A stretch of 64,000 nt of DNA from Raillietiella orientalis (GCA_036172245.1 JAYWIR010000009.1:2976001-3040000); one strand, 5' to 3'; counted from the stretch's first letter, positions 2,817 to 53,800 are shown. Program-made: numbers and translations. Notes: generated from the sequence alone by a model not told the origin.

Positions 2817-4399
2817 CTCACCCCACAGCTTGTGGAAATGGGGAAATTCTGATGTGCTGGGGTCTTCCACCACTGGACCTTCACGCCTCCACCACTGGAC
2901 CAGGGGGGGAGGAGGAGGGACTCGAATTGCCACAGGCGCGGGGAGAGGGAGAAAGACCTCCCCCCGCACCTGCTCATGAGCTGCGTTGCTCCCTTCGGGC
3001 GCGTTTCGGGATGGCCCTACGGACCTTGGACGGCAGCACCAGGAGCATAATGAAACGCGTCTTAGTGCGCTCTGCCCGCCATCAGCCGCATCTTCAGCAG
3101 CTCTTGGCTGCCTCCGCGGGATGGTGCCATCGGAGACCAGCTTTAGAAGAGACCGGAACGCAGGGGACGCCGTCCACGAAGGTCGCCACGAGATGGCCAC
3201 ACTCACCGGGTGGTCAAACGTGACACTTCCGAACGAGGGGCGTGACCTCATACTCTGGCCGCAGCTCCCGCCGTGGTCGATGAGGCCGGCACCGAACGTG
3301 GCTCCTCCACCTTCGTGTGGGCACCGTCGATGGGCAGCAGTTCCTACCCCGCGGGCACATGGATCCCTGAGCCGGGACAACCTCCTGCATCCCTCTTCCT
3401 CAAGTGGGGACCTGTTGGTTCCCCTAGGTTGGTTCCTGGTTGGTCCCCCACGGACAGGGGGATGGCGCCTGTGTGAGCTGCGGGTCCTTTTCCGCACCGA
3501 GGCGGCAGCCTTTCGTAGGGGCCGGGACTCCCGGAGGAACACCTTTGAGGACCCACTTCCTCTGTCCCCGCACTGCCATCTTGCCCTGCAGCCACAAATA
3601 CACCGAGACTGCTCATCCCCTGCAGTGGAGCCGCGTCTTCCATTGGCGCGAGGTCACCTTTCCCCTTTGACCGTCTCTTCCGCCCCAGAAGGCGGCAGAC
3701 TGTTTCACCTGACCCCAGCAGAGAGGAAGGGTGAGAAGAATTATGTGGCACGCATTAGAGGGCATGGGACCAACCTCTCTTCTTTATTGAATTTTTATTT
3801 ATCCGCTGCTCCTCATCCCCGTCATCCCAGGCCTCTCTCTCTGGACCAAGAGCGTCTCTGCCCCTCCTACTTCCCCGTTCCTCCTCCTCGTAATCGTCAC
3901 CATCATCCATTCGTCTTCCTTCTCTTTCTCCTCCCTTACTCCTCCTCTCCCGCTTTCCGGTGGCACCGAAACGGCCTGTATGAAAGCGTTTCAAACCATC
4001 CCAGGGCGTCGGTTCTTCCAAAACCTCTTGAGGCTCCCGCCTGCTCCCACCTGGTCGCATGGGGAGACTTGCAAAGTGACCCGCAGCGCTCCGGAGAGTC
4101 CGCGAAGGACTGGTGCGTGATCTCTCTCTTCCCTCCTTTCTTCCTTCGTCCTCCTCCTCTTCCCTTCCTCCATCCCTTCGTCCTCACCTCCGACTTCTCC
4201 AACCGCTTCCGCTGGACAGGTTCCGGTGCGTAACTGAGGGCGATGCGCGTGACGCCGCTGCTGGACGAAGACGCTTGTGGAGTGGGGGGAGGAAAAAAGA
4301 AAGAGACCCGGGTCTTTCCCTCACCTTCACCCCTGGATCCCGTTTGTGCTCCTCACCCAGCCCTTCCTCATTCCTTTCCCGTGTCCGGGAGAGAGGCTG

Positions 4400-4567
4400 C
4401 CGCGAGTTCCCATCTTGCTTGACTGCCGCCAGCTCTCCTGGATCGCCGTCAGGTTTATTGAAACCCGATCGCAGCGACATGCAGCGGAGAGTGGCGGTCA
4501 ATTATTGATTCTCAACGGAGCAGATGAGCATCCTAAAGACTTGATCCGATCGCAGTTATTCGGATGA
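4400..4567 (+). mobile_element. pogo/Tigger-type DDE transposase relic
   Basis: WIAVRFIE...GQLLILNGADEHPKDL resembles the DDE_1 segment W....F+......LL+LDN...HP..L. The catalytic Asp is not intact and only a fragment remains. Confidence 0.5.
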
Positions 4568-6929
4568 GGGGCCGGGAAGTGGGCGGTAGCCCCCCGCTGC
4601 TCCTCTTCTCCCGAGGCGGGGAGGCATCGGAAATCGCGCACTTTCTGCTGCCTCCTCCGGCAGAATTCGATCGGCGCCGGCGCAGCCATCACCAGGAGGC
4701 GAGGAGGAAGCCGGAAAGGGAAGGAGCAGGGGTGACGCCCCACCTCTGCGCCCCCACCGCTGCGCTCCCGAAACGCCCTCCGCCTGATCACGCCGCCCAG
4801 CTGGACACGGGCACAGGTCCTGCATCTTGGCGGCGGGCGGAGGGGTCGTTCGCGTCGAGCGCACCCACTCGAGCCGGGGTTGTCCACCGTGGTGGTCCAT
4901 CAAGCGGACAGAGCAAGTCGAAACCTCATCGGAAGCGCAAGGAACGGCGCAGCGAACTTCGGCTTCTCAACGAATGCAGCCTCCCTCGCGAACGTCGTCA
5001 CGGAACCTCCGTGTGCAGCTTGCAGTCCGCCAATTTGTCGACCCTCTGCCACGTAGGCAGGTCTTCCAGCTGAAGTCTTAAATTACCTATCGGAGAGTGC
5101 AGAACGTATTCCAGGGAGGAAGGAGGACGGAACGTCGATCCTGCCGAGCGGCACGAAAAATCCTGCAGCCCTTGCGATCGATGAAAGCACTTGACCACAT
5201 TTAATTCCCCCCCCCCTTCCTCCCCTTGGCGCATTGGTATTTTTTTTTTTTTTTTTTGAGGGGGGGGGGGGTACACGCCGTAGATTTACGGCTCTTCTTG
5301 AAAAATTTAAAATAAATCATTCCTGCCCCCCTCCCCTCCCTACCTTGGAGTGAGGCGCGCGAGACACTTCCGAAGATAAATTTCCCGCAAGCAACTCTGC
5401 AGCGCAAAATGCACGAGAAGGCGCATAAGGTTGCTCGGCGGAAAAAAGTCCAAAGGACGTTCGTAGCAAAACGGCAGCCATCTATCAGTCTGAGAACTGG
5501 CGATTCAGCACGGCGGGCAGAAGTTTCGTTGGGTCCTCTCGCGTCCGTCTGGACCTCACCGTACGGGGCCTCCGCTTTTTTCCTTTCCCTTGCTTCCCCC
5601 CTCCCCCCCTCTTCGCTCCGTGTCGGTCCCCGTAGCTGCAGCTCCCGGCGCTTCTGGCTGGTGCCAAAAAGGTAAGCTGCGCGCGGACCGGCAAGCGCCA
5701 GAATTAAATCGGAAGAACGCACGCCGCGCGCGCTTTTGTTTGGCATCCGTGAGACACATCCCTGACAAATGGGCCCACAAACTTGTCAGAGTCGCCGAGA
5801 CGACTCCTACTTTGCATAAAGGATGCCTACACGCTGCGGCAGTTTCCGAGCTGCCTCAATTACAGTCTCACGGACTGGTCAAAACGCTGTTACTGTCTCC
5901 GACGGGTAAAGTGATGACCTTTTTTCTAAGCCGAGGGGCACAGGGCTGTTGTGGTCGCTGTCATCGTTCTGTACTGTTGCTGTCGTCGTTGCCATCGCTG
6001 TTCATCATTTCGGATAAACGTCACGGGAAGACGCGCTTCCGGTCCGAGCAGAGGACCTGGGCGCCTCCAAACCGTCTTTCGCCAAGGCAGGCGCGGCGCC
6101 ACGCCCGCTGCCTCCGCTTCCAGCCCTGCCGCCGACTCCAGACTTCGACGCCGGTGACCCTGAGGATTCCCTGAACTCCCGACTCGGAAGAGCACTCGGG
6201 AACGGCCCCCCCGTTCCTCGCGTGCGTGGAGGAGTGGCAAGCCTGGGAGCGATGCTTCGTCTTTCCTGGGGACCTCTTCTTCCGCGTGCCTGGTAGCGGA
6301 CGGACGCCCAGCCCTGCAGGGCCGGAAACCAGAAAACCAGAATGTCGAACCAGAAGAAAAACGTTGCCGGCAGCCAGATGGGTATCCACGTCAGGTACAT
6401 ATGGAAAATGCAATTTGTCTTCTGGTTTTCCGATACGGTTTCTTTGAGGTTACGACATGCAAGGGGTGAGCATACTTAGCGCTCTCAAAAAAATACTCCC
6501 ACGCGCATGAGGAAAGAAGCACTTATTTATTGAGCCGAAATTCATTAATCTTGAAGGCACAAAAACAAAAGTAGGGGGGGGGGGAGGGAGGGAACACTAC
6601 GCCGTGCCTACCTCTGCAAAAGATAAAAAAAAAAAAAAAAAAGGCACTGCGTAGGCTCAGAGCGCGCTGTGCCTACGCGGTCTGAGACCACAGCCCGCGT
6701 TCTTGCGGGCTTTTTCTCACGAACATCCATAACTTTCTCTGCACTTAAATCGCTTCCTCAAGCTGACTGACAGCTTTCCCATTTAACTTAATAACATTAT
6801 AAATAGTTGCCGTAACTCTTTGAGCAGCAATTCGGAATGAAAACGCAAAAAAAGAAAGAAGGAGAGAAAATTCCTGGGATTTATTAGGTCCAGCGAGCAC
6901 TGATAAAATCGGATTGTCTTTCGGATCGT

Positions 6930-7340
6930 CCGAGAGAGCGTTCGAAAGCCGCGGATGCCTCGAGGATGGGTTTCGTACGCGTGCTTTCGCCACCTACGAA
7001 GGACCGGCAGCTCGCATGGAAGACCCACGGGAAACGAAGAAAACGAGACGCTGGAGGGAGGAGTGAGAAGCGGGTAGACACGACGGATCACAGGGTCAAA
7101 TTGTGGGAGAAGGGGGAAAAACGAGGCTCCCAGCTCCAGGATGATGGATTCGAGAAGCCGAAACCGGAAATCTCGCATCCACGCGGAGCGGTCGTGCCAC
7201 TCGAGACGAGAACGCGAGCACCAAGGTGGAACAGCTACGTATCCCAGAATTCACAAAGGACGAAGAACGCTTCGGAGAAAACCAGCAACACATCCATCTC
7301 CTGCTTGAAGGTGGAAGTTTGGGAGTTGCGCAGGTTTGGG
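6930..7340 (+). mobile_element. hAT transposase relic
   Basis: CFRHL (CxxH) at 6982, then RWNS at 7224 in a different frame, then LKVEVWEL (L..E.W.L). The motif order is typical of hAT transposases. Confidence 0.4.
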
Positions 7341-10300
7341 AAAAAAAAAAACTTTTACTCTAGAAAACTCCTCCGGGAGGTTCAGAAGGGGGCCTCCAGA
7401 TGCTTTGTTCCTGGCGACCACGGAAAAGAGAGTTCCTCCATCTGATCGGTGAGGCTGCTCTTTTGGACGCGGGACAGACAATATCGTCGAAAACGAGAAC
7501 AGAGCACTCTCTGGTCATCCCGATTTGGCCTTTCTTTTCCTAACTTTCCTTTTCGATGACAGAATTGCTATCCGGCCGCAAAATGGAATGGTTTCCATGG
7601 TTTCCGCCTTGGAAATTCACGTCGTGAGGGACAGTCCTTGAGGAAGAAAATTCCTACGCTTCCTAGAGAGCAGCTGAAAAGCCGTATTCAAGCACTTTCG
7701 TGGCCCTGCCTCTTGCCATCAACAGTCCGGAGTAGTTGACGAAGCGTTACCATGGAAAAAGCTCCGCCACTGCTGACGAAGCGTTGCCACGAAAAACCCA
7801 CCATTGCTGTTGGCGCCTTGTATGCCAAAGCCACTTGGCCCGAAGAGTAGCCTAGCAACCCTAACGAAAGTCTCCAGAAAGGCCTTGCATTGCAGACCCG
7901 CACATCGAGTCACCCGGAAGGAAGCTCGAGACGATTCTGCCCTAGGGCCGGGTTATGAGGCATCAGGGGAGCTCTGGTGGCCCTGGGAACAGCGACGAAG
8001 ACCACGGTCACTGCAACGTCCCGAAGGCGCAGCAGTCACTTCTGAGCGACATTCTGGAGATGGTAAGCGCTCCCCCTTCGGTCTCTAGAAGTCCCGGGGG
8101 CAGACGGTTGGGCAGCCTTCGCGGGATGGAAAGGAGATTGGCTCTCCACTCCCTTTTTTCTCTTTCCCGAAAGTTTTTCCCTCCTTCTCACAGCAGAAAT
8201 GCGTCGGTGCCGTCCATCCGTTCCTCTCCTCCTCAGATATTCCTTCTCCATCCAGGGCGCGCTCAACTGCTGTGATCCTCGAGTCGTCTCCCTAGGATTT
8301 CACATCAGCCCGAGGAGAGCGAGGACTGCTGGTGTCCCACCCGGAAGGCGTGACGAACGGCTCGTGCATTTGCGTGTACGTGCGCAGGTTTCCGGCGACC
8401 TCCGTGCAGTTGAGAGCACGTACATGTGCTGCGTGTGCTTCTACTGCTCTTACATGTACGCGCGGGTACACGAATGAGGGAGCTCAGATGATCCTGCACT
8501 CCTCTCTCGGAGGTTCCGCTCTTCCGAAGAGAAAGCAGCACCAAACCTGCGGACCTCCGCGAGACGTTCGACCAGCGGAGCAGGCGGTTGCTGCTGCTCC
8601 TCCAAGCCACAGCAACCGACTCGTCCTCGCACCTGGCGTGGCGCGCTTCTCAGGAGGCCACAGTCCGAGCTTTTCGTTTCTCTTCGTCCTGCACACGTAG
8701 ATGAGGGCAACGGGATGGGTGCCCATGCCCCAGATGACCGCCACACTTTCAACGACCAGCTAAGGACTAGTCGGAAAGGCCAACGTGGCGAGGATGTCAC
8801 GGCTCGTTCGCTCCCTGCCTCTTATCGCGTTTCCCCAGAAACGTGCGTCGCGTCTCTCTTCGTTCGGCCTGGTGCCTTGGCAACGGAAACCCGTTGGACA
8901 CCTCGTGGTGGAAGGACACACACACCCTTCCACTTTCCCGTTCGCGCTCTCCTCTCTGAGTGCCACGCAAGGGCTCTGGAGGACATTCGACCCTCTTCCT
9001 TTCTTCCCACCGGACCGTGGTTGCTGCTTCCTTCCCGCCCCCTCTACCCATGCAGTAACCTCCCTCCCTTCCTCTGCGCTCGGCCGAGGCCTGGAACCAG
9101 ACTCGGAGGGGGGATGGATGTGCCTTCGCAAGCCAGGAACGCAAGGCTCCCGGGATATAAGGAGAGACTGAGCTCCCGCTTACGTTCCTCCAGCTCTCGA
9201 GGATGCCCACAGGATCCGGCAACCGCGCCAACCAGCTGTCCTTTGGGAAGTGGGAACTTCCCAAAGGACAGCAGTCCTATCCAGTGTGCTTCCCTGCACG
9301 CGGATGGGAGCGCGAATGGAAGCGGGAGAAAGGCGGCGGCAGAGGTGCGGTACGCGAAGGTTCGGGGAGCTTGAAGGCGCGCGTACGGGGTCGGAGTGGG
9401 AGAGGGAGTAGGCGGAGAGCGATGAAAGGAAGGCATCTGCATCTGCTGAGCAGGGCGGCCGAAGAGACTTCCCTTGGCGAGGACTCTGAAACGCTCCCAG
9501 GCTCGTGACAGGCGTGGATGCGTGAGGAAACAAACGAGACTCGGATTCTCAAAAAGAAGCTGCTGAACCCGTCTCGGGTCGCCATTCAGACAGTCGGAGG
9601 GGGGATCAGTTCCTTCCCTCTGTGGAGGACAGCAAATCCCGAAACCAACCCGTTGCTAAGCAGCTGCCGAGGGAAGTGCAGGGATACCTTTCCTGGATGA
9701 CATCGCGAATCGCCTATTGCAGGCGATAGATGGGACGCGTCGTCTCAGAGCTGTCGAGTAAACGTGGGTTGTTTTAAGAATTCCCCTCCTTCCATTCTCT
9801 CTCTCTCCAAAAAGAGAAAGAGGTGAGTCAGCCCACACTCACCTGACAACTCCGGCGCCATGTATTACCATGGACACCGGTCGCGAGGCAGCGAACGATC
9901 CACACGCATTCCATGTTTTCTTTGGAGGTTTCGTCTGCCTGAGAGCAGGAAGAGAGACGTGCGTTGCGCCTCCTCCTTTCGAAGATTCCCACGCCTGAGC
10001 TCCTCTTGCGGAAGCGCCTGCACGCAGACCCTCGTACGACCTCGATGAGCAGAGTGAAGCGGAGCAGGGAGTGATTTCCACAACGCACCTCCGGGGCGAC
10101 AGAGCGTCTCCTTTCGCAGTCGATGTGGCCGTTCTTTTTGCCTCGAGGATCCCAAGACCCCGTCCGCTGCCCCGGCACCGATTATGCCGCGATGACCGTG
10201 CGGGAAGGGGAGAATTTTCACGGCCACTGGGGAACAAGTTGGGCGCGCGGAAACGCCCTGCGCGGCTGCACCCTTTCTGGCCCGACCCCGGGACCTCCGA

Positions 10301-37673: not shown

Positions 37674-40600
37674 TCAATAGTTACTATCTTTGAGACTGCG
37701 ATTGGATGAGAAACAAAGTTTCATTAAATATGGAAACTTGCTGCCTATTTAGCAGACAATAATGAACTGCAAAAGCATGGAAGCACTTACTTGAATGATT
37801 GATGGTTGTGTGGTTACATATGACAAGTGCTTCTAAAGCATCTGGTACACTTGCAAATTCTAGAAGTCCTGATGAACTTCGTTCAGCTGCTATTATTGCT
37901 ACAAATGACATCCCAATAAAGTATCACTTACATTTAGAGGGAAATAACTTTATGCCCGTGGGTGGCTTGGCTCCACTATCCTCAAACACCTTTTTCAACT
38001 CCTCCTCATTGATTCCAGGAGGCGTATTGAAAAAATGGAGTACCTGCGTAGAAGAGAATCATGTGTTCCGTCACTTATTGCCCTTACTTTAGATGGAGGT
38101 TGGATACGATTTTTTTGGGCCATTTCAGGATTAATGAAACGGTTATTTTTATTACCCATAAAATCTTTGAATGATGGCGATCCATCAGAAAGAGTATATG
38201 GCTGTTGCACATCGCTCAGGAAAGCTTGCTTTGAGTATCTAATAAGCAGAGCTTGGTAACCAGAGCATGACGAGCCACATTCCATACCCAAGTTGCAGTT
38301 TGGATCCAAAAAATAACTTATTGTTCAAATTTTGAATAGCCCTCTCTACAGAAAGTGCATCTCCCATCTGCACCATGGCACAACCTTCCTTGGTTTTTAA
38401 AAATTTTATCTACTCGATTTTAGATGACATGCTACAAACACACTGACTGCACTTACTCGCACTACATTTCCGTATAAACAAAACAAATTGAATAATCGAT
38501 CGACATTAGCCTGGTCAGGATTTAGCCCATAGACCATCATCACAGCCCCTTGCTGAGGAACTCCAGTACCACCAGAAGGAGGACCATGTGGGGAAAATAA
38601 ACCACCTCCATAACTGATTTGAGAGCTTCGAGCCAAACCATTTGCATAATCATCTCCAGCACGCTGCACAAAACCTCTGACCAGCACAAATGTTGGAAAT
38701 CTCAATTGAATACAATACACATACCTTCGTCCTTCAAAAGGTTCTGGAGAAAAATTGGCAAACGAAGTTGGTCCTGCACCCCTCGGGCCATATTCAAACT
38801 GTTCGCTGAACAAAGATCCACTCGTCATACTGCGCATTCCACTCATGCTTGGTTCTGGAACGATTGCCCGATAAGGGCTCACACCAGCCTCCATGTACCC
38901 GGCATCCCCGCTCCGCCATGCCTGTTCGTGAGTTCTTTCTTCCCCATTGCACCCTACAACTGTGAACCCCAACCCACACTATGTCTCCAGTCCTTAACTT
39001 ACTATAAGGTGTAGGTCCGGAGCCATAGCGTGGCTCCTCCAGCAGTGGTCTTTTCTCCGAATGGTCCTGTTTAACGAGGCCTGGAAATGCACCAAACAAA
39101 TGCCTTTCAGTTGGGCCAACCGACAAAACTGCTCCCTCAATTTCTGTCTGATGATGAGGCAGCAGTTAGCATACAACCCACTACACCCGACCACACCCAG
39201 GCATATGCCAATGCTTAGACAGTATCTGGAATAGAGCATTGCAACGGGGTGCCGATGTCTGCCACGATGAAGGGTGGTGCCATTCCACACACACTCACAA
39301 ACAAGGGGGGAAAAACCTTACTTTGGGTGGATGAGAAGGCCAATCATGGAGTCTCAGTTCCGAGAAGCGCTGACCATGCGGGGTTTTCCGCAGCTGCCCT
39401 CCTGTGCGCAAAACAATAACATGAGGAACCAATGAAGCACATGTGATGCGCTGCATTATAACAAAGTTACTCTAAGAAAAACAAGGTGCTCAACGTGTGC
39501 AAGGCCATCCAAATCAGGTGGTGTTTGCTGTTGCCTCGTGTCAAAGAATATTTTGAGTTCATTGGTTCTGTGGATACTGGTTTGTGCACACTAGCAGCAG
39601 TTTTTGTCAAAAAAACATCTGGAGCAATTAATGTAGAACCCAATAACAGTGTTGCCCATGTTTTGCTACTGAAAGTGGATAAAAGTGGAAAGGAATGCCT
39701 GTTGCACACCTGAGATAAGAGCACAACTGTCATGAGAACATAGCCTTAAGCTTAACTGTGAACTGTGTGCCATCATTGTGGTGAACTGAAAAAAGAATGT
39801 TGTTAAATCAACATCAAAGGATTTTTGAGCATCACAACAAATTACAGGGTTCTTCTGGCCAGTCTTACACAGCAATGCGTGTTCATCCTTATTGTATTTG
39901 GAAGCATCTGATGAGTCGCTCCCTTGATACAGGTTTCTGACTGTTTCTATTATGCCAGTGATTCTACCCCATGATAAAGATCAAGTGCCCTCAGTCTGTG
40001 GGTGAAGTCAACTGTATAATGAGCCTGGGAATTTTGCTGCAACAAGGTCACTTTGTAACTTGCTTAGTTAATAGCATTCCCAGGCTCTAAAAGGATCATA
40101 TGGAACCAGAATATTGTTTACAAGTTTGTACAATGTAATGCCAATTGTATGAAACCGTAACCGCTGTGCCATCTCAGCGTATATCATTATATTGTGGCAA
40201 ATGGAAAAAGAAAACCATTCTTACCTAGATTGGGGTTTGTATAATCCCAGCTATCTAGATCATTTTTGTATACATTCAATTTGGTAGGCTAGAAAATAAT
40301 ACAGATTTACCAAGATTAAACCCAAAGCCAACATAGTTCTCATAGTGATCTCAACACACTGAGAAATTCAAATCTTGAGAATTTATGTCAAAAATTGAAA
40401 AAATAGAAAAACACATCACAAGCTTTTCTACACTTTTGTGCATATTTACCTTGGCAAACTCAATACGGACAGTACAGCATCCAGAATATATGTCAGCACC
40501 ATGTAAAGCATCCTTGGCTCTTTTTGCTTCTTCAATAGATGCAAATGTAAAACATATTAAAGAAAACATAATTCATCTGGTATTCAGAAATGAAATTTAT

Positions 40601-43527
40601 GGTATTCAAATAATTTACAATATTTAAATAAACCATGAAAGCCAAAAAGAGCATATTTATCCATCAAACAAAATTTTACTTTCCATGGATTTTTTGCAAT
40701 GCTTTGAGTGACAAATAAGATCTAAAATGTATAACGTAAATCTGAAAAGGATATTCAACCATTGCCTGTACACCATTTTTTTTAAAAATAACAATACGGA
40801 GAACCTTTCCATATGGACTGGATATAGTATGAATAACATCCTATCAAAAATGAACGTTCATTTTCAGTTATTCAACCAATGCAATTATTATAAACTGTAC
40901 TTACAGTAGTGACAGGATATACAGGATTAAGAATTGTCATGAGCAATACATGATTTTCAGGTTCAACCCTAGAATGAAAAGCAACTATCTAAAATAATAT
41001 AAAACTATGAGAACCACATTTTGAAAACTAATGAAATATTTAATTGAATTAATTACTGTAAACTTGGTACGCAAAAATTAAAAATCGAAATTAGCAAACT
41101 TTAATTAAGATTATTTTTCCTTAATGTAGAATTTATTGTATAATTTTACCTTCTCCTTTTGCTGTTTGGTCCATCATATTCATAGTAACCCTTAAATAAT
41201 AATAAAAGAGCATTAAAAAATGGTGAAATATAGTGCACTTCAATTACATAAATATTGATTTTCTTATTAACACTGTATAATTAAAGACCATCTCACACAA
41301 AAAAAAAATCACGAAATCTGTGAGCGAGAAAAAACACTTTACTTTACTGGAATGTAAATCGAAATATCATTTTTCTCCTGCTTTGTGTAAGTTTTTTTTT
41401 TTTCGAAATAACAAAATACCCAAACCTAATTCATTCACTTAGAACTCTATGAAGAGGTTTTTATATATTTCCATTAGAAATAAGTAGTAAGTTTGAAATA
41501 TTCATGATTTGCCATTGTTTACTCTAGTGTACATGGAACTCATACACTCACTGACGCCAAAATTTGATAAATAGTGGCCTTGTTTACATGATTGATTGAT
41601 GATTAAATATAACACTTTCCACTGGTATTTTCTATATAAAATGATGAATGAAAAGACTTTCCTGCAACTATCTCCACTGTTCAAGGAAATTATACCAGCT
41701 AATTAAAGGAGAATTCAGATCGTTTCATGATTAATTAACTTATCCAAAAAACGAACTTTTTAAACACAATTCTTCAAAAACATTTTCCATCTAGTAGAAA
41801 ACGAAAATATCAACGGCATCTGTCTTTATACAATAAAAACAACTAAATCCCTACAAAACCCAGCATTACGAAATCACACTGAGATTTCTTTGGGAAAACC
41901 ATTTTGAAGATTTTAAAGATGGATATTGTGTATAATATGATAAAAGATAGCTCCATACCACTGTTTGAAAAAACGAAAATCAGAATAAGAAATCTGCCTT
42001 CCCTTCATTTAAAAACACCTCCTCAACCAAACACAGCAGTTTTTTGTTGCTGCTGCTGTTGATATGCAACATAAATACTTAATGTTTCAATTTAGCTTTT
42101 GTTATTTCATCCCTAGAAGGTAATCAGTCAACTTGAATAATGACTGAAACTATTTAGGAACACAAACCTTCCACACATGTATTCTTTAGTTACATTTTGA
42201 ACACTCACTGCAGAATGCAATCATGAAAAAGAAATATACCTTTATGATTAAAAAGCCATTTGGTGGCATCCCTATAAACTGAAAGTGAAAGTGAAGTGAC
42301 TAAGTGAAGTCATTAAAATTGAATCTAAGACTTGTTTGTGAAGCTTTATATTTTGTATTTATATACCTACTGCAATCATTTGATTGAATAATTTGAATGC
42401 AAAAAGAAACTAAGTATCATGTATCCATCAAGAAACCAAAATCAAACAGTTGCTTCAAACTGACTATGGAATTCCATGTATACAACCAAACAAACAAGTA
42501 CCAAACAAATGAATTTTCTTAGTATTTTATCATTCTCGGAGTTCGTTTACAACGAATCATGAATTTGTATTTCTACAATCGCCTATTTTTACTTGAAATC
42601 AATATGTCAATAAAACACGATCAATAAAGTCATATCCCAGAAAGCATGCAACTGCTGTTACCTGAGAGAAACTGCTTCTCTTTATATAGAAATATTACCG
42701 ATTACAGTACATCCATTAAGGATGCAGGGCAACCATTTAAAATGCTTAATCTTTAATCAGCAGTGGTATAGGCAAAAGTCGAATCAGTTAAGTTTCTCAA
42801 TTAGATAATAAATACGCAAAATTCGAAATAGCGCCTTCATTCCAAGGCATCATTTTGATTTTCACCTCAAGAAGGTTGCTAGCCAAAGGATGAACTTGAA
42901 AGAACAAAAATCGTTTTCGACTCCTAACGAAATGAACGCATATCGTAATGCAGAAATGATGCTTTATCTACATTTCAAAAAACGTCTGCCGTGGTTTCGA
43001 TACCCACGACTATTACTAACGAAACTTCCTGATACCTGCATTGCTTTGCACTCGCATTTGAGAACCAGCATGGGCAGATTATAAACACTTGATGACCACG
43101 GGAAGAGTGCTTCGTTGAAACCACTTACCTTCGGGGCCAATATGTCAACAAATGGAGAAAAGTCCAGAATTGGATTTTTTTTTTGTGTTGTTTCCCCCCC
43201 TACACACACACACACACACAAGGATTACATCACGTTACCACGATCGACCACTACTACGACCGAATCCGATCACGAGTTTATCGATATCCACACCATCCAC
43301 CCATTTTCCAAAGCTTATACTCTGTAGGAAACTAATCCCAATGCATTCCTTTCGAAACTTGTGCCAAATCTATTAGTTACAAGCCAAAACAGACGGAACG
43401 TCGTTTACAATACCTCTTCCATCTTCGCTTTCGATCTGGATCCATCATCTTCCCCCACACGCATGTTTGGCCGTTGCTGATTAAAATTCGAACGATTAAC
43501 CATATTTCTTCTTCCTCTTGATGTCAT
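37674..43527 (-). CDS. HNRNPL: Heterogeneous nuclear ribonucleoprotein L (smooth ortholog), 14 exons, 514 aa
   Basis: Exons: 43527-43414, 41190-41150, 40968-40905, 40840-40755, 40546-40450, 40288-40225, 39080-39003, 38953-38725, 38676-38457, 38409-38288, 38238-38088, 38043-37932, 37886-37791, 37744-37674. Total 1545 nt with all phases consistent. Diagnostic peptides: NHVLLMTILNPVYPVTTDV..RIVIFKKNGVQAMVEF..LHGADIYSGCCTVRIEFAKPTKLNVYKND..WDYTNPNL, GAVMMVYGL..DRLFNLFCLYGNVVRIKFLKTKEGCAMVQMGD, KNRIQPPSKVLHFFNTPP, SERSSSGLLEF, KFPYLMKLCFSS. The first exon rests on splice signals and phase only. Confidence 0.96.
39322..39401 (-). other. Candidate 80-nt frameshifting (poison) cassette exon in hnRNP L intron 6
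   Basis: Splice signals TTATTGTTTTGCGCACAG|GAGGGCAG...CCACCCAAA|GTAAGG. The length is not a multiple of 3, and inclusion gives TGA at 38881-38879. Confidence 0.6.
40547..40754 (-). other. U12-type AT-AC intron (208 nt) in hnRNP L
   Basis: 5' end GA|ATATCCTTTT matches the U12 consensus. Branch-like TTCTTTAAT lies about 10 nt before the 3' end TTTTAC|A. Removing it restores VQAMVE-FASIEEA. Confidence 0.92.
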
Positions 43528-43559
43528 TTCACTTTGATTTTCATGTAGACAACCTCACA

Positions 43560-43950
43560 CGCCAGGACCTTGCCTAGATCACAATCTCACAAAGCGTGCC
43601 CCGTCGCCATTATGAAGCCATACTGAAATTTCAAAATGGAAGCATTTGCAGCATTGGTGATTAATTTTTTTTACTTCACGAAGGGAATCCTCAGGGAACG
43701 AGGTGACTTATTATCGATGTCAGCCCGTGATAATTCATGAATAATGATTTATTCAATGTACGCACCCTGCAGTATTCGTGGTAACGAAAATACAAATAAA
43801 TTAATCGAGTGAATGCTCATATTGCATTAAGAAAACACTTAAATCTAAAAGCCAGTATCTGATCATTCTTCCATAGAAGAAAAACGTCGATTCATCACAT
43901 ATGCAGCCATTCGTCATGTAAATGTTATTGTGTTTTATAAAAAAAAAAAA
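43560..43950. promoter_or_regulatory. hnRNP L promoter region, possibly bidirectional
   Basis: Immediately upstream of exon 1, with CpGs retained locally inside an AT-rich zone. GCCAT (YY1/Pho-like) motifs at about 43606, 43617 and 43906; DRE-like TATCGAT at 43712-43718; a perfect TATCGATA at 43279-43286. Confidence 0.5.
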
Positions 43951-44793
43951 AACAGAAAAAATGGAAAAATCAGGAAACGAATTTTCTGGTGGATGGATGT
44001 AATCTATTGTCTTTCAAGTTAGTTCTTCCCGGAGGACATCAGGAATAATCTATTATAACATTTAGGAGGGGGAGGGAGACAGAAGGATGCTTTTAGGGGG
44101 CACGCAAAGTAATTACCAGTTTTTCATTGAAGCTTGCTTTTCTCCACACTGTCTCTACTTCCGAACCTGGGGACAATATTTTTAATATCTGCATTCCCAT
44201 CTGATGCAATTATTGCATTTCATACGGTTGCTTTCTTCAATTCTTGAAGTAAGCAGTTGTATGCTGTATTCATGATGAAATGACGTAAGAGTGTATATCT
44301 CTACATCTCTGCATGCAAATCCTCTTTTTAAGGATTCTGTGTCCGTCTGCTTTATATTCAGTCTGTCTTCTGACTGGACTCGAATAGCTTCTTCGAAAAA
44401 TACTCTGAATAATGAGGAAAAGGCGCTATTGTCATTCTAAACCAGTGGAAACTTGGTGCTTATAATTATTCTAAATATTATAGAAACATGGACACCTAAC
44501 CTTAACGTCATATCTTCCCACTCATTGCTCCTGAAATTTAGCATTAGGGTGTCAGCAGTCATTGAGAACTGAAAAGGAAAAAATTTTTATTCGTTTATGT
44601 CTGCTGTTGTCTTGGCTTGTCATTTCTGTTTTGGACGTCTCTCTAAGCTTTCTTATTCATTGCAACATGTTGTACACTGACGGAAATTTTTTATTTTAAA
44701 ATTTGTATAATTTACATGATTGTACAAATTTTAAAATGAAATATTTACATGATGATGGCTTTTAAATATTTAGCTGCAATTCGCCTTTAGCTG

Positions 44794-44829
44794 TAATTCC
44801 ATGGCACTGTAGACAGTGCCATGGAATTA
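44794..44829. repeat. Perfect 17-bp inverted repeat with a 2-nt loop
   Basis: TAATTCCATGGCACTGT-AG-ACAGTGCCATGGAATTA. Confidence 0.95.
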
Positions 44830-47800
44830 TTGGTTGACTCATTTAAGACTCACCAGCATCTAAATTTCGAATTTTTTTCATTGAGTCCATGCAATCAAAG
44901 GCATTGATCTGTTTATTAACAAAAGATCATATACACGGAAAATTCTCTTTTTGGTGAATACAGTGCACAAGAAGATCTCAAATGTAAACTTCGCAGTCAT
45001 GATCAGCTGTCAATGTGACACTGGAATTTGTGTATCATCAAGATGTTGCTCGATTTCTGCTAGATTATCAAGATCCCTAATTAATCTTTGTAAGTGTAAC
45101 TTTAAGCCCCATTAAAGCTAAAGTTTTTTAAAAGCGGCATTCGAAATTGGTTGAATTCTTTAGACGTCGGAAGATTAATCCAAAGTAATAGATTTTGAAA
45201 CTGTTCTCGAGATTGATAGCAATTTTACATATCAAAAACTACTAAAAGTGAAAGCGACAGCTCTCTTGTAACGAACGAATAAGAGGACTTGGTTTTCAAA
45301 ATGCATGAAAAAATAGTGACAAGTTGATAAATAGTTAGGATAGTCAATAAATTCTCAAATAACAGATATAATGGATTGAGGAGTATTAAATCTGTTACTT
45401 AAGAATCAAATGCCACAGTAAGCTAAAGCTTGCATATGCTAAAGCTAAAGCTAAAGCTTTGGATATTTCAGACCCAGATCTATAGTGCCTAAGACTGAAT
45501 ACCAAATCTTGTGTTTTGTGGAATAGAGTATCACAAACATAACAACGGTATCTACAGAATGTTTCAAGTAGCAGGAAATGTTTGTATACAATTACACAAT
45601 CCATAAAGACGATGTAGCTTAACGACGACGATCTAAAGTAACTTGTATTTTCATGAAGACAAAGTAGACAATCTTGAATTTAAATTTACAGAAGAAACCG
45701 ATGGTCCCTACAAAATATGAGCCAGTTATGCTTACGACAATTATGCTCATGGTGTATTATGCAGTTTGCCTTTATCAAAAAATCTACTAAAGACACTGAG
45801 TTTAGATCATCTGATACTCTATTTCTTTTCTTTTCTTGTTTCTGGTTTCTTAACCTCTAGGAATCACAGTTTGCTTGTTGATGCTCAAAATGAAAAGCGT
45901 CGCTCAGCTTTTCCTCATAAGCTTCCAAAGACTCTTGCAATCCTAATTAAGCGTGAAATTTAACTATTATAAGACATCGCTGCTTTCTTGTAGGCAAGCC
46001 AAAGCAATGAAATTGCTTGGGTTACCTAAAAGTCCACTGTTTCTCATTAAATGCAATTCCTTTGGCGTTTCACGGGAAACGCAGATACAAATATACTATC
46101 TTTACTTGATTTGCAAGTCTTGGTGCTCTGAAGCATTCCATGATAACGCACAACCACGAGAGGTATTTTTCTCAATGTTGGATGCTTTATATGGCTTCAA
46201 GACTTTTCAAATGCTTTTTTGGTCATTTCTAAATGACGCTAAAAGCTTTAGCACGAATATTCCCATATGTCATAATTTTGTTGGGTTAAAATAATGACAG
46301 CCATGTTGCATTGGATTGAAGTCTGAGATGTAGATAAAAGAAACAGGTTTTATTTTATTTTAGGTAGGTGTTCTTGTAGGAAACATACTTTCAGTATTTG
46401 TTTACTTTGCAAACGCATGGCGCCCAAAGTAGAGCTTCTTGAAAAAGTCTCATGCTTTTTCATTCTAACAAATTTTATTGGGATCCATAGATCACAATTT
46501 ATTTTTCTTCTAAGCAGAATTTTATAACCCAGGTTTGTTGAAGAAGCTTGCTTAAGGAAGTATTGCAGTGCTGAGATTCTAAACTGTTAGCAAAATATAA
46601 CATTTTACTAACACAGTCCTTATTTGCAATAACATTTAATAAAACTGTGGAAAGTCATTTCGAAATTTGTAATCAACTCCATGTGCTATCATTGCAATTT
46701 TTTTTGAAAACGGAACCTGGAAGGAATATTGTGAAAAAAGAAATGGAATGTATTTTCATTCTGTAATGAAATTCGATTATCAGTTTACAGTTATTACCAG
46801 TTGCTTCTCATAAAGCATCTAATGATCTGATTTTTATCTTCATTTATGTTTCATTTCTCTCCGGATTGTATTTATAGTTTTACTCGTGGACATTTTGGCA
46901 CAATGTTCGGATAATTGTCCTGTGCTTGGGAAAAAAACGTACATAGGATATCAACAAGGGCGAATTTGGATCTTCAAGTTTATTACTAATAATTTCGTCT
47001 CCATTTTGATGAATTCGATGCTTATTTATGGAACAAAATCAATAATAATTACCGAAGATTGAAAGTTGCCTGCCTGCAGAATTTCCGTTAATCATTTGAA
47101 GTTGAGCATTTCATCATCAGCGACAGATTTAGCAGATGCAATTATGCACGAGAATTCCATTCTCATTAGCAAATAGGAGCTTGGGAGGCTCAAAAAAACC
47201 ATTTGCCTTTTTACATGGGATGCTGCATTAAAACTTTTTACAAATGTATTGTATGAATTTAAATGCACATATAATTAATATAGTGGATTTTATCTGAAAA
47301 AAAAGTTGACATCAACCTCTATGAGGTGAGAAGAGAGAAAGTCATAAGAAAATTGGAGATTACTCACGCAAAATAAAGATAACTATAAACAAAATTACCT
47401 CAGTGTTTGCATTATTTGCTTATAAAAGAAATTTTCTAAACGATTAATCTAAGCATTCAATTACGATGTGAAATCCATACAAAGTCACAATAAATTGCTA
47501 CTTTATTTATTTTAGCATTTTGAGTAATGCACTGTAAATAATTAATAATCTAAACTTTCTAAGTGAAATGCAGTGAGAGTGAACCATAAATAAAGTATTT
47601 ATCTCGTTTTGTTGTTTAATTGAAATCTGCTTAAAGTCTTATATTCAAATCTTCAATTGTAGCACAGAAAGCTTCGGAGATATATTAGAAATTTAAAATA
47701 CCAAATAAATACTGAAGTTCTTGATGAACCTAAAAAGCAGTAAATTTTCTTGGGAGGCTAAGCACGTGGCTCCAAAGAATCATTGGTTTAATGCTTTGGG

Positions 47801-50800
47801 ATTCAAATGTCCAAGAGAAAGAACAGAGATGCAAACTAAACTGTGGAACAAGTAAGCTTAATTGATTACCAGGTACTTTGAATTTCGACAGAACTTTGTG
47901 TTTCTTGGTTTGCAAATGTATTTTGTTCAGGCTAGACCTCTTTTTCCGGTTGATATGTGATTAATTTCTGGTGCAATCGAACAAAAGTGTTCGTTAAGCT
48001 GCAGGCAATGAATGAAAATTTTATACACCAATTTAATTGAAAATGCGTCCGCAAATCTTGTTGCTACTCAAGTAAACATATGGTGAAATCACTTCTGGGG
48101 AAAAATGTTTCTATGTAATTCATTCTTCCACTTTATTTGCAAGTGAAAGTAAAAATCAACGCAAAGTGTGCACATAAATACCAGAAAGTATAAATAAATG
48201 AAATCAATGGTACCTGTGAAGCTATTTTGTTTCTTCAAAATATACAAAAACAAAAGGAAGTACTGGCATCGCGAAAATGAATTTGCCATTGTATCAGATG
48301 ATGAAAGTAAGTTTGAAACTGAAGATAAAGAAGATAATAAGGAACTATTTGTTTGATAATACTGATTGCACTGTAGGATCTAAATTCATTGTTTTGTGTG
48401 AATCTGAAATTTACGAAAGTACACATATAAATTTGTGTACCACGATGCATTAATGAAGTGTGCTGTGTTTATGGCAGGAAATGTCAGAGGAAAATTAATA
48501 GGATGATTGAATTTTTTTAATGTTAATTGGTGTAATTGAATTCATGATGGTGGATTAAATTCTCCAAGGAGAAACTGTTAGAGTTCGTGCGACGCGGTAT
48601 TTTTGATGATTGTTAATGTTTGCAATTTAATCAATTACTTCTTTAAATGAATTGACAGATTTGGGGGAGAGAGCTTCTTAATCACCAAATGTGCATTGGA
48701 TACTGATATAAGAATATTGATGCATTCTAAATTGATAATATTAATCCTCTTAGCTGAATCCAATGTTAGTCAGAAATGTTGATTCTTTATAATGTGAAGC
48801 TTTGAATTTGATCGGTTTTACACTTGCTGCTGAATTTCTAAAATGTTAGCGAAAGTTTTGCATAGTTCATACGACATAAAATTGTATTATCCATAGAGTT
48901 GATTAAACCTGTATCATTGCATGTCAAATACACACATATAAATGTCCATTACCAAAGTTTCAATTTCTGTTATTTTCTCCTTCGATAATTAATCCAATTA
49001 ATACATTTGGTGTATGGTCATTAATTGCTAAGAGTAGATTGTGTTATAGTTGCCTGATTTCTTAATTTAATTTTATACTGATGAAGCCATGTCCATTTCC
49101 TGCTTGGTATTTTTGATTACATGCTTGCAAGGATTTCAGAAGAGAATTGCAGATAAAACTTCATATTTTACTGTCTTCATTTGTAATATTGCTGAATAGA
49201 TATATTCTTCCATTGAAATAAGAATTCAAACCTGTTTTCCAGGAATATCATGCCTGACTATTTGAAATTCATTTATGTTGTCTAATTTGTGTGAAAAGAA
49301 TATCTGTGCATTTTATTGGGCATTGTAAATAAATAGGCGATTGTGTGGTAATTTTTTAAGGAAAATTCATTTTCTTTCACATTCAATTCTCTTGCAAGCT
49401 TTGCTTTTAGTGCATTCATTTTTGGTATGTTTTGGCTTTGGGAAAGGCACTTTAGTTCTAACCAAAATCAAACTCTGGTTGATAATTATCCTAAACCCCT
49501 TATTGTTGTGAAAGATTACTTGCTAAGCTGTGATATATAAGGGAAACATTTAATAAGCAAAGTTGTGCTGATTAACTAGGAACTTACCTTGCAGGCATTT
49601 TTTTCTTGAAGAACTTTAATTCATAATTTCTGTTTGCAAACTGAACTTTCATATGTTGCTGAACTGTAAAAGCAATTTATCATCCTTTATTGTATTCTAG
49701 AGTTAGTAGATTCTTTTTCATTTTTATAATTTGATTTTTATGGTTAAATCCAAAGTACGCACTTTTCTGTTAGAGCAAATATTGCATTAGTTTCAAATTT
49801 TGTTATTATTGATAAGATACTGGCATTGTCAATGTGGCAGATTTGTTGAAAAAGGCATACTTGTGATGTCCAAATGTTTATGTTTTTTCTCCAGTTTCTT
49901 TGTATTTGACAGTTCATAATTTTCATTTTTAGAGAATTTAATGTTGTTGTGTTTTGGAGTTGGTTATATCAGAATTCTGAAATCTGCATTTTCCAAAGAG
50001 TGTTTTTCTGTTCCAATACTAGGAGTATTTTTCTATTAAATATGATTTCATGTAAAGTACTCTTATTAATCTTCGAATCTTTAAATATCATAAGCTGTTT
50101 TAGGTATTATGAACACTTCATTAGCCACAAGCTCTTGTGTGAAACTCCTGTTTTTTTTTTTTTTTTGGCATGTTAGATTGTTTAGTGTAATCTATTTGCT
50201 TGTTTGTTTCATTGAAAGTTTACTTGTTTATTTTTTGAACTGAAGCAAATTAAAATGGAATAGTTACAAGTCAAAGCATAACAGAATTATGAATGAAAAA
50301 TACCAAAAACGATGTTAGCTGCATGGTATTGATGCTTGGTGTAAGCATGTAAAGTGTGAATGATAGTCAGTACTATGGGTGTTACACCCATTTATTATGT
50401 GTGTGCATGTGTTTTTTATTGCAGCCACATACTATACTGATTTATGCAGAATCTTGGTTAAATTTTTGTCTTTGGTTGAGTACAGTCAAGGTTTTTCAGT
50501 AAATATAATCAATATTGTGTGCTGAACTTGCTTTCATTGATAATTATGTCTTAATGTTTTGAGTTAATCAGTTTTATAGTTTTTCACATGCAATAGAAAG
50601 CAAAAGGAAATTTGTCATCTGTTTAATTTGTTATTTCTCAAAAATTTGGTGAAACAAAGCTACAATGTGAGCGTGTGAAGTGCATCAACACTCACTGGTA
50701 TATGTTATATTCAGATGGCACTTCTGTAGACTGTGTAGAGTTTCAAGCAAACCCCTATGGATAACAAATTATAGTATTATCAAGTTTTTGTTATACTTAA

Positions 50801-50808
50801 TTGCATAG

Positions 50809-50870
50809 AAATCTACTCATGAAGATGGGCTCAGAATTCATCAAGTAACTTTGAGGAAGACTATCATGGG
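50809..50870 (+). other. Candidate small exon (62 nt) of a + strand transcript
   Basis: TTTTTGTTATACTTAATTGCATAG|AAATC...CATGGG|GTAAGT. No recognisable protein homology. Confidence 0.3.
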
Positions 50871-53800
50871 GTAAGTGTGTGCAAGAATACTATTAAACAT
50901 TAAAAAAACATTACCGTGCAGTAATTTCAAAGTTCATGTGAATACAAGAATGTTATTTATTGAGCAGATGTTAGCATTGAATTTAGAAGTGATTTCTCAT
51001 GGTAGTAGCATTTGCATTGGCTTCAGTTTTGTTATTTATTTGTGATACAGGGGTAGTAGTCATGTTAATTAATTGTGGTGTTTACTCTGAGTGTAAAATG
51101 GGTTTGATCTGTTTCATATAGTTTCCAGAGTAAATGTAATTGATATGCTTTCCCATGAATCATAATTTCAGTTTGAACAGTATAACACTGCGCCGAATAT
51201 AAATAGGGAAATAAATAAAATCTGATGTTGGTTGTTGTTAAAATCATTCAAACATGCATGACTGATCATTGTGATAGCTGATATGCTTTGTTCAAAGTCA
51301 GTCTAGGAGATGAGTAATTATGTTTTTCAAACAGGTTGATAAATGCATTTTTTCCAAAGAGATATGTGATTTTCTTGTGTTTAAACAATAAAAATATTGA
51401 CTGTGGAAGTGGTGTGAAAACTAAAAATTCCTAATGAAGGATTTTTGAAAAATGGACATCAAATTCTTGTTTGTATGATTTTATTATATCAACTTCTAAA
51501 GAAAATATTGCGAGAATTTCAAGGGATGCCAGAATTCCCACTTTTGAAATATTAGCATCGAGTAGGTGAATTCTGTTTTCGTTAACATAGATGAGCAGTA
51601 TTCATCTTTATAACTTCAATGTGTCACAAGGGATTGTAATGAATGGCCTTAAAAGCATTGATTTCGCCACTGAGGAAAATATAAATTAAACAAATAATGT
51701 TCATGTCATTGCCAAATACAGTATAAGGAGCTTTATGCAAAAAGAGAACCGCCGGCACATAGTGGAAGTGTTTGCAGAACAATAGACTATCATTTTTCGC
51801 CATGAAGTGAAGAAAAACATTATGCCTCACTCGAGTGGGTGATCATTTGTAAGTAATCATTCAGAGAATAGCTCGAATACGCTCGTGTAGTACAGGCAGA
51901 GAGATTCTCTCACAGTGAATCATATAAAAATGGGGGGGTCTTGCGTGATTAAGTTCTCATGGTTTGGGAAAGCATTCGTGAACAAGTGCGACACCCATAG
52001 TGGATTTGAAGTCAGTTTTAAAGACAAATAAGGTGAAAGCTTACTACGTATTTAATATTTTCACATCGCAGAGGCGTAACAAGCAAAGCTTGCTTTTGTG
52101 ACTGTGAATTAAGAGTGCGGAACGTTAAAAGGCTGAAGGCGTATGCCATCCCAAAATTTAATGATCAAAACAAAAAAAAGAAAAAAAGGACTTTGAAAGA
52201 ATCTTGTGAAAATTATGCATTGGTATTTTGTGTAAATTACGAGCGCAATTATCGTGTTGCCTGATTTATTGAAGACTGTGGTGCGGCCTTGCAATTTGAA
52301 TTTTATCTATGGTCATAAATCAAAATGTATGCCTTAGATAGATGCTGATATCGATGTCTCCGAAATGACAAAAGCAGCTGATGCAAATATTAAAAACCGA
52401 AGGAGCTAAAGTGTTCCAAGAACGCTTGCCAAGAACTTTCCTCACAAAATCCCGAACCGTTGATGCAGGAATTTTCCTCTGCAGTCGTTTCCAGGAGGGA
52501 GATTTTCGTCTCATAGGGATAGAAGACAGCGTGGATGATGCGGGTTCTTGTGTGCGTAGAGTACCGAATGGGTAAACCTTCCAATGATTTTCAGTGCAGG
52601 GGAAGGGAGGTTTCCTGGGTGACAGCATAGGGGAGTAAGGCATTCCAGAACAAAAAACAGTGTTCTCACGAAAAAAGGTTCTCGATCTAGCAATAGCATG
52701 TGTTAGGTGATGTAAACATATGGTGCATATTAGCTTCAGTTCCTTTCCATGTTTCTCATACTATGAATTTGAAATCTCATGAAATCGTCAAAATACAGTC
52801 TTCACCCATTCCATTGCCACCCGGTTTTTAGCAAGCTGCTTGGATTTTAGGGTTTTTTTTAAAAAAAAAAATAAAAATAAAAATAAAAAAATGAAAATCC
52901 GATGTCGCTAAGCCAGTTTCATTATGAATTTTTTTTTTTAATGGGATGTTTTGCTAACTGTTCCTGATTAAATGCATGACTTGCACTTTCTCTGGTCTTT
53001 TTCTCTGAAGGCATATCAATTGGATGTCAATCAACTAGGAATTCAAAGTCATGGTCCTTTGGGGGGGAAGGGGGGGAACATCCTTTTATTTACCAGGTAG
53101 ATGAAAGGATTTTTTTTTTTTTTTTTTTTGATCGATAGAAGCCAGAATCAAAAACGACATACCTGCAAAATGGAAGGGCTGTGACTTTCTTTTCATTCCG
53201 CATCCGTCATTCGTAATCTTCAAGCATCCGCGTTGGTACTGTGGCGAAGAGAAAATGAAATTTGCTCGTCTTGCTCGTCGGCCCACTTGTGTGGGAGTCG
53301 GACATAAGCTGACGGATCGGATATAAAAGCCTCGATTTTGAATTATTAGCAAGTTACACCGTAATCCATGCTCTTGTGTTTTTCGAAAGCAGGCATTTGG
53401 GATAGGCGCGCGGATTCCTTCGAATTTCCAGCCGAATCGGCGGCAAATTTAGCGTTTTGTTCGAAATTCCCTGACACGGAAGAGAGTGACCACCCTTTAG
53501 CCGTTCCCAGGCTGATCCTTCGCAATCTCATTTCGAATCAGAGGCGATTTCGATTCCGGATCAGAAAAGATGAGGAAGGTGTTTCCTCTGGATCCTCAAT
53601 GCCATGGAAACATCTTCGTCCTGTTTTCCTGCAGCCCTCCGCGTTGGTTTAGTTCTTTTCTCCCTCTGCTCAGCGCTTTGTTTGACATCCATTTGGACAT
53701 AAATGCGTTCGTATTTATTCCTTTGGTTTATTTCGTCCCCCTTTTGTATTTTCAGCGACGGTTTCGTTCCTCTTTGAAGCGGAGTCTCTCCGCTTTTCGC

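Follow-up and report, generated by a model that had tools for sequence, protein, structure and literature searches.

Does a protostome gene for hnRNP L limit its own output through a poison exon, as the vertebrate gene does? The question is raised by a stretch of 64,000 nucleotides (nt) of Raillietiella orientalis DNA (GCA_036172245.1 JAYWIR010000009.1:2976001-3040000), here called the window, which means the whole stretch at its full length. An hnRNP L gene lies on its minus strand, and the intron that follows the exon encoding …WDYTNPNL contains an 80-nt segment with an acceptor and a donor splice site. A preliminary description of the window had proposed this segment as a counterpart of vertebrate exon 6A. 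Exon 6A of vertebrate HNRNPL, which is also numbered exon 7, is reportedly an autoregulatory poison exon (Rossbach et al. 2009, Mol Cell Biol 29:1442). Judged on its sequence, the segment in the window has about an even chance of being a real, regulated autoregulatory poison exon that ends at 39322. Of the two possible starts, 39401 is somewhat favoured over 39471. The autoregulatory idea is now better supported in general, by the vertebrates and by an annelid-like group, than in the window's own case.

The features of the locus on which the argument turns are the following.

41190..37674, minus strand: modelled part of the hnRNP L orthologue, 13 exons, 1443 nt, 480 codons, stop codon TGA at 37674.
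40288..40225, minus strand: exon PTKLNVYKNDLDSWDYTNPNL, ending in phase 1 after the opening base of a Gly codon; its identity to arthropod proteins is 74-86%.
40224..39081, minus strand: long intron, 1144 nt, GTAAGA…TTCCAG.
39825..39402, minus strand: CA-motif-rich stretch, a proposed hnRNP L binding cluster, at intron positions 400-823, adjoining the candidate exon on its upstream side.
39471..39402, minus strand: possible upstream extension of the candidate exon, alternative acceptor TTGTTTTTCTTAG/A at 39471, pyrimidine fraction 0.71.
39401..39322, minus strand: candidate poison exon, 80 nt, acceptor CAG/G, donor AAA/GTAAGG.
39321..39081, minus strand: sub-intron from the candidate exon to the next coding exon, 241 nt.
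39080..39003, minus strand: next constitutive exon (…EKRPLLEEPRYGSGPTPY…), 73% identity over 15 residues to a Schistocerca protein.
38881-38879, minus strand: TGA, where the shifted frame first meets a stop when the 80 nt are included, within the exon 38953..38725.

The gene model was made by reading exons from the sequence under the guidance of tblastn with arthropod hnRNP L proteins, and the exons were joined by a script. The joined 13-exon model is one stop-free frame, which begins with a short N-terminal exon (…KRRR), passes through three RRM regions and closes with the stop codon. Over its full length, the modelled protein shares 53-58% identity with hnRNP L of insects, collembolans and the horseshoe crab. 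A protein search with the RRM3 exon of the window gave E values of at most 0.001 for 252 of 301 candidates, and the named matches were arthropod hnRNP L or L-like proteins. No protein identical to this exon was found by BLASTP in the protein collection searched; the highest identity among the 120 matches listed was 86%, over part of the exon. The window protein falls within a Pancrustacea clade (7 rows, SH-aLRT 98) when a quick single-gene tree is built. On the strength of these protein comparisons, the gene is a pancrustacean orthologue of hnRNP L. The placement in the tree makes it therefore a protostome gene, and the preliminary description, which had called the host an invertebrate hnRNP L and had assumed a protostome, is borne out.

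The exon before the long intron ends at 40225, after …WDYTNPNL, in phase 1 of the Gly codon. In the gene model the intron lengths are, in order, 181, 64, 208, 161, 1144, 49, 48, 47, 49, 44, 33 and 46 nt. The intron of 1144 nt is thus more than five times the length of any other, the remaining eleven measuring 33-208 nt. A length of 44-49 nt had been claimed for the downstream introns, and this is right for six of them but not for the one of 33 nt. The length of the 1144-nt intron has no other visible cause among those checked: no repeat copy of it was found elsewhere in the window, no match to an Rfam family at E≤1 within 38800-40400, no Pfam match at E≤1 for the six open reading frames (ORFs) of the intron, and no AATAAA or ATTAAA poly(A) signal within it.

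Within the intron, the 80-nt segment 39401..39322 is preceded by TTGTTTTGCGCACAG and followed on its 3' side by GTAAGG. The nine bases of the candidate donor are identical to those of the real donor at 38087 in the same gene. Only two internal GT sites in the 1144-nt intron have at least five of seven consensus matches, and the candidate donor is one of them. An acceptor scan found two acceptors ahead of this donor, so that the exon would measure 80 nt (from 39401) or 150 nt (from 39471). The G+C content of the 80-nt segment is 0.57 against 0.40 in the upstream part of the intron. The segment has a length not divisible by three and contains no internal in-frame stop. Splicing in silico with the 80 nt shifts the frame and ends at the TGA at 38881-38879, with a product of 194 residues; this stop is followed by six exon junctions and by about 0.9 kb of sequence that is normally coding. 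When the acceptor at 39471 is used, the second codon of the 150-nt exon is an in-frame TAA in the translation. Both forms therefore yield a premature termination codon. The long intron, the segment with its splice sites, the TGA and the six junctions are all as the preliminary description had placed them.

The second observation that carries the argument is the CA-motif-rich stretch directly upstream of the segment. CACA or ACAC occurs 14 times in the 424 nt of 39825..39402, or 3.3 per 100 nt, whereas the density is 0.47 per 100 nt for the remainder of the gene region and 0.88 for the window as a whole. Relative to that remainder, the enrichment of the stretch is sevenfold. The intron has 18 such words, and 14 of them stand at intron positions 445-819. 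None of 2000 mononucleotide shuffles got to 14 words. In the 8-kb gene region, the 12 windows richest in ACA/CAC all fall within 39860..39421.

The third observation is the position of the intron. Human exon 6A is located at chr19:39332253-39332322 and has 70 nt (PMC6547761 Table 1). The inclusion of human exon 6A goes up strongly upon depletion of UPF1 or SMG6 (PMC6547761). According to a review (PMC7547044), binding of hnRNP L directly upstream of exon 6A promotes its inclusion, which agrees with what had been said in advance about its activation. Among 120 short relatives listed, four truncated bird or mammal entries (P0129, P0132, P0171 and P0225) read …WDYTNPNLSGQG and then share a common tail of 18 residues and a stop. 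Many other entries read …SGQG-NL…, as expected if a GTAAY intron that splits the Gly codon in phase 1 is read through. The intron that holds vertebrate exon 6A hence follows the equivalent exon directly and has the same phase. The four entries uphold the claim that it follows the WDYTNPNL exon, with the correction that the vertebrate junction is three codons further on (…NPNLSGQ-G). The vertebrate exon had also been called frameshifting; this is incomplete, since it carries its own in-frame stop (PMC6885243). Position and phase suggest that the introns of the window and of vertebrates are orthologous, their junctions being three codons apart. Four genomic contigs of fishes (L056, L059, L061 and L062) lack the NPNL exon, and no 6A element was recognisable in them.

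The comparison among protostomes draws on 70 loci that a single scan of metagenome contigs returned; none of them is close to the window, and the highest match of a segment among them was 84% protein identity over 32 residues. Seven loci that are not obvious spliced transcripts contain both the NPNL exon and coding sequence downstream of it. Three of the seven have no intron after the NPNL exon, one has a short intron of about 62 nt and three have a long one. The most informative is L051, in which the intron after …NPNL-G extends over 4.7 kb (3027..7742) in phase 1. The relative P0253 groups with annelids in the single-gene tree (SH-aLRT 97). Within the intron, L051:6853-7232 is 73-84% conserved in four other contigs (L016, L039, L008 and L032). 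The alignment comprises an A/C-rich part and then an invariant acceptor (…GTGCTAATTCAG/). A cassette of 45 or 47 nt follows, ending with the invariant …TGAG/GTAACTG, and a second invariant AG/GTAA is found 33-37 nt further on, which gives a form of 80-82 nt. The cassettes delimited from the alignment of the conserved block are the following.

L051:7120-7166 or 7120-7201: annelid-like cassette, shorter or longer form.
L016:5106-5187: annelid-like cassette.
L039:2116-2195: annelid-like cassette.
L008, about 5507-5588: annelid-like cassette.
L032:1837-1917: annelid-like cassette.

When the cassette is entered in phase 1, an in-frame TGA is met at codon 14 or 15 in all five contigs, and a second TGA, five bases on, compensates for the 2-nt difference in length. 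The lengths of 45 or 47 and of 80-82 nt do not keep the frame. In this part of the alignment, conservation by blocks of 25 columns peaks where the acceptor and both donors stand, with 17-18 of the 25 columns invariant; an equally conserved block is found upstream of the A/C-rich part. P0253, a protein of complementary DNA (cDNA) type from a related species, continues from NPNL-G directly into the next exon, so that no coding exon intervenes. By its alignment, the annelid-like block has the signature of a conserved poison exon, and it probably is one. The window fits this pattern, with its outlier intron, its cluster of CA words and one good cassette right behind it.

Two mite-like loci, L006 and L026, have RRM2 regions 88-92% identical to proteins of trombidiform mites. 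Their introns at this position are also long, 664 nt (L006:1991-2654) and 526 nt (L026:3622-4147), next to neighbouring introns of 74 and 61 nt, respectively. In both, the densest ACA/CAC cluster of the whole locus is inside the long intron. It is equalled by none of the windows outside (0 of 2494 in L006, 0 of 1748 in L026), and by shuffles in 0 of 300 cases in L006 and 13 of 300 in L026. The parts covered of the partial introns of L001, L031 and L024 contain no clear CA cluster.

The mite-like introns bear on a different explanation, in which the long intron and its CA stretch serve some other role, as a splicing enhancer or silencer, in regulated intron retention or as a transcriptional element, and the exon-like piece is incidental. 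CA elements of the hnRNP L type act in many modes, and repression of cryptic exons has been reported (PMC5959245). The mite-like introns have the CA clusters and show no clear cassette. Retention of the window's 1144-nt intron would also bring an early stop, as the ORF list gives …NPNLGKNGFLFPFATI and then a stop. On the other side stand the absence of a poly(A) signal and of an Rfam family from the intron; at gathering score, no Rfam family was found anywhere in the 64-kb window. In addition, the conservation in the annelid-like group centres on the acceptor, the stop-bearing 45-47 nt and the GTAA donors, which points to a cassette rather than to a plain enhancer. We consider such another role unlikely.

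The alternative that the 80-nt segment is a chance pseudo-exon is more serious. The intron would then be long for unrelated reasons and the splice sites would be unused or noise. It is set out here together with the other evidence that weighs against a poison exon in the window. When the intron was shuffled with its dinucleotides preserved, and splice-site pairs were sought with a simple consensus score and the acceptor and donor 40-200 nt apart, a pair of equal quality appeared in 566 of 2000 shuffles. The splice-site pair is weak evidence by itself, being not beyond chance. From the composition, about one GTAAG per 1.1 kb is estimated to occur. Almost any random cassette would be poisonous because two in three lengths shift the frame. 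The peak ACA/CAC density of the window is equalled by 137 of 300 dinucleotide shuffles of the intron, and the whole intron is as rich in TGTG/GTGT (19) as in CACA/ACAC (18). The comparisons are also partly unfavourable to a poison exon. The window intron has no detectable similarity to the annelid block or to six other loci, none of them close relatives, and the scores of its segment against them are within those of shuffles. No convincing cassette was delimited in the introns of L006 and L026; in the former no acceptor and donor pair passed, and in the latter the passing pairs are only upstream of or inside the CA cluster. In L015, a collembolan-like locus, the intron measures only about 62 nt (boundaries set by eye), and L014, L029 and L036 have no intron between RRM2 and RRM3. 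The feature is therefore not universal among the protostome loci compared. Furthermore, the vertebrate and annelid elements hold a stop inside the exon, and the 80-nt form in the window holds none.

Other points speak against chance. The pair coincides with the cluster of CA words directly upstream, and a pair with at least 13 CACA/ACAC words in the 400 nt upstream was found in only 27 of 2000 dinucleotide-preserving shuffles, with the motif region and the thresholds, including that of at least 13 motifs, picked after inspection of the data. The segment also lies in the same intron as vertebrate exon 6A and the stop-bearing element of the annelid-like group. Finally, this is the only long intron of the twelve, with no repeat, domain or RNA that explains it. 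We rate a chance pseudo-exon as less likely than a regulated poison exon, but more likely than another role of the intron.

From the observed anatomy, frame consequences, motif enrichment and positional match, we infer how the cassette may be spliced, where hnRNP L may bind, in which direction it would act and how the message would decay. The long intron after the WDYTNPNL exon would house a regulated non-coding cassette, with its start at 39401 or 39471 and its end at the GTAAGG donor at 39322. When hnRNP L is abundant, it would bind the cluster of CA motifs, which covers roughly the 400 nt upstream, and favour the use of the cassette. Inclusion would lead to the premature stop, which would be the TGA at 38881-38879 by frameshift in the 80-nt form or the immediate TAA in the 150-nt form. 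The resulting message would encode a protein without the last two RRMs, and it would probably be cleared by nonsense-mediated decay (NMD). The output of hnRNP L would then fall, and the loop would be a negative feedback as at vertebrate exon 6A. Negative feedback requires that binding activate inclusion, which is what has been reported for the mammalian gene. NMD in flies is held to be independent of downstream junctions; for this reason the long 3' region after the early stop would outweigh the six junctions.

How old such a device might be can be asked from the same comparison. In the widest reading, the combination of a CA-rich cluster and a stop-introducing cassette in this phase-1 intron would predate the split of protostomes and deuterostomes. 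It would have been kept in vertebrates, annelids, trombidiform mites and the pancrustacean of the window, and collembolans and some mites would have lost it along with the intron or the intron's length. We regard this ancient origin as possible but doubtful.

Several other sequences end or change at or near this junction. Three short arthropod hnRNP L entries, P0142, P0162 and P0125, end a few residues past the WDYT…-G junction. P0142 is isoform X3 of Halyomorpha halys, which has 133 residues and ends 9 residues after the Gly, and P0162 is an isoform of Drosophila arizonae. These entries may be annotated inclusion isoforms, read-through products or alternative ends. In the vertebrate paralogue, the bird hnRNP LL entries P0166 and P0177 part from the full-length LL of fishes (P0150 and P0187) right after …WDYTKPYL and reach a stop within 10-14 residues. 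Their endings are compatible with a poison exon or with read-through at the corresponding intron of the paralogue. Among about 17 cDNA-like loci, L003 and L063 were considered as inclusion isoforms and rejected; their frame changes are inside the Gly/Pro-rich linker with no inserted block and are read as assembly indels, not as a cassette.

The host gene has some further peculiarities. One of its introns, of 208 nt (40754..40547, minus strand), is of the U12-type AT-AC class, with the donor /ATATCCTTTT, the acceptor …TTTTAC/ and a branch-like box TTTCTTTAAT about 12 nt ahead of the 3' end. It is required for joining …AMVE to FASIEEAKRAK, and the gene model is open with it. The 3' introns of the gene are mostly clustered at 44-49 nt. 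The exception, the 33-nt intron at 37931-37899 on the minus strand (GTAAGT…TTGTAG), keeps the frame between two RRM4 exons. No RRM1 exon was found between the first two modelled exons (intron 41149-40969), exons further upstream not having been searched. The exon ending in …KRRR joins the RRM2-equivalent exon directly, and the RRM2-equivalent region of the guide arthropod proteins likewise begins near residue 40. The arthropod form of the gene seems to have three RRMs, in contrast to the four RRMs of vertebrate hnRNP L (PMC3384337). The base composition of the window changes sharply, from 55-64% G+C, or about 58%, at 1-36000 to about 30% at 40000-52000. The hnRNP L gene straddles this transition, and its exons differ in G+C content.

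Self-limiting loops through poison exons hold splicing regulators at safe levels, and for hnRNP L such a loop is documented in mammals. In the full-text literature searched, which leaves most subscription journals outside its cover, no poison exon of hnRNP L or smooth was found described outside vertebrates. No published description of the conserved annelid-like element was found either. If the cassette of the window and the annelid-like element are real, the hnRNP L loop would be about as old as the bilaterians, or it would have been rebuilt repeatedly at one intron. Either origin, if true, bears on how such circuits arise and persist. An origin before the split would place the loop among the oldest position-conserved circuits of unproductive splicing outside the SR proteins. 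Should the cassette prove not to be real, the long intron would exemplify how easily pseudo-exons mimic poison exons.

Among known systems, vertebrate exon 6A is the closest to the candidate in the window. The host genes are orthologous, and in both the intron comes directly after …WDYTNPNL(SGQ)-G, in the part between RRM2 and RRM3, and interrupts the Gly codon in phase 1. Both cassettes are short (70 nt in human and 80 nt in the window), CA-rich sequence, in the window a proposed binding cluster, lies upstream of both (PMC7547044 for the vertebrate side), and the premature stop removes RRM3 and RRM4 in vertebrates (PMC6885243) and would do so in the window. They differ in that the 80-nt form in the window stops by frameshift alone, about 200 nt on in the spliced message, and in that its junction is three codons earlier. 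The vertebrate exon is near-identical at the peptide level between birds and mammals. Its inclusion, its NMD and its dependence on hnRNP L are proven in human cells, whereas those of the cassette in the window are predicted. With the annelid-like element, the candidate shares the same intron after …NPNL-G, phase 1, A/C-rich upstream sequence and a non-coding cassette (45-82 nt in the annelid-like group) whose inclusion would lead to a premature stop. Unlike the candidate, the annelid-like element is backed by conservation across species and by an exon-internal stop in five of five contigs.

More distant parallels are found in other splicing-factor genes. The poison exons of SR-protein and TRA2 genes are stop-bearing non-coding cassettes in homeostatic feedback (PMC11791180, PMC13228269). 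They belong to another protein family with another binding motif, and they are ultraconserved within vertebrates. Nearer to hnRNP L are the loops of alternative splicing coupled to NMD in which hnRNP L cross-regulates HNRNPLL and in which exon 11 of PTBP1 is skipped (PMC6547761, PMC7547044, PMC11062102). The PTBP1 loop acts through the skipping of an essential exon, not through the inclusion of a poison exon. Like the loop proposed here, both are cases in which RRM proteins of the hnRNP L/PTB family control their own level, or that of a paralogue, by unproductive splicing.

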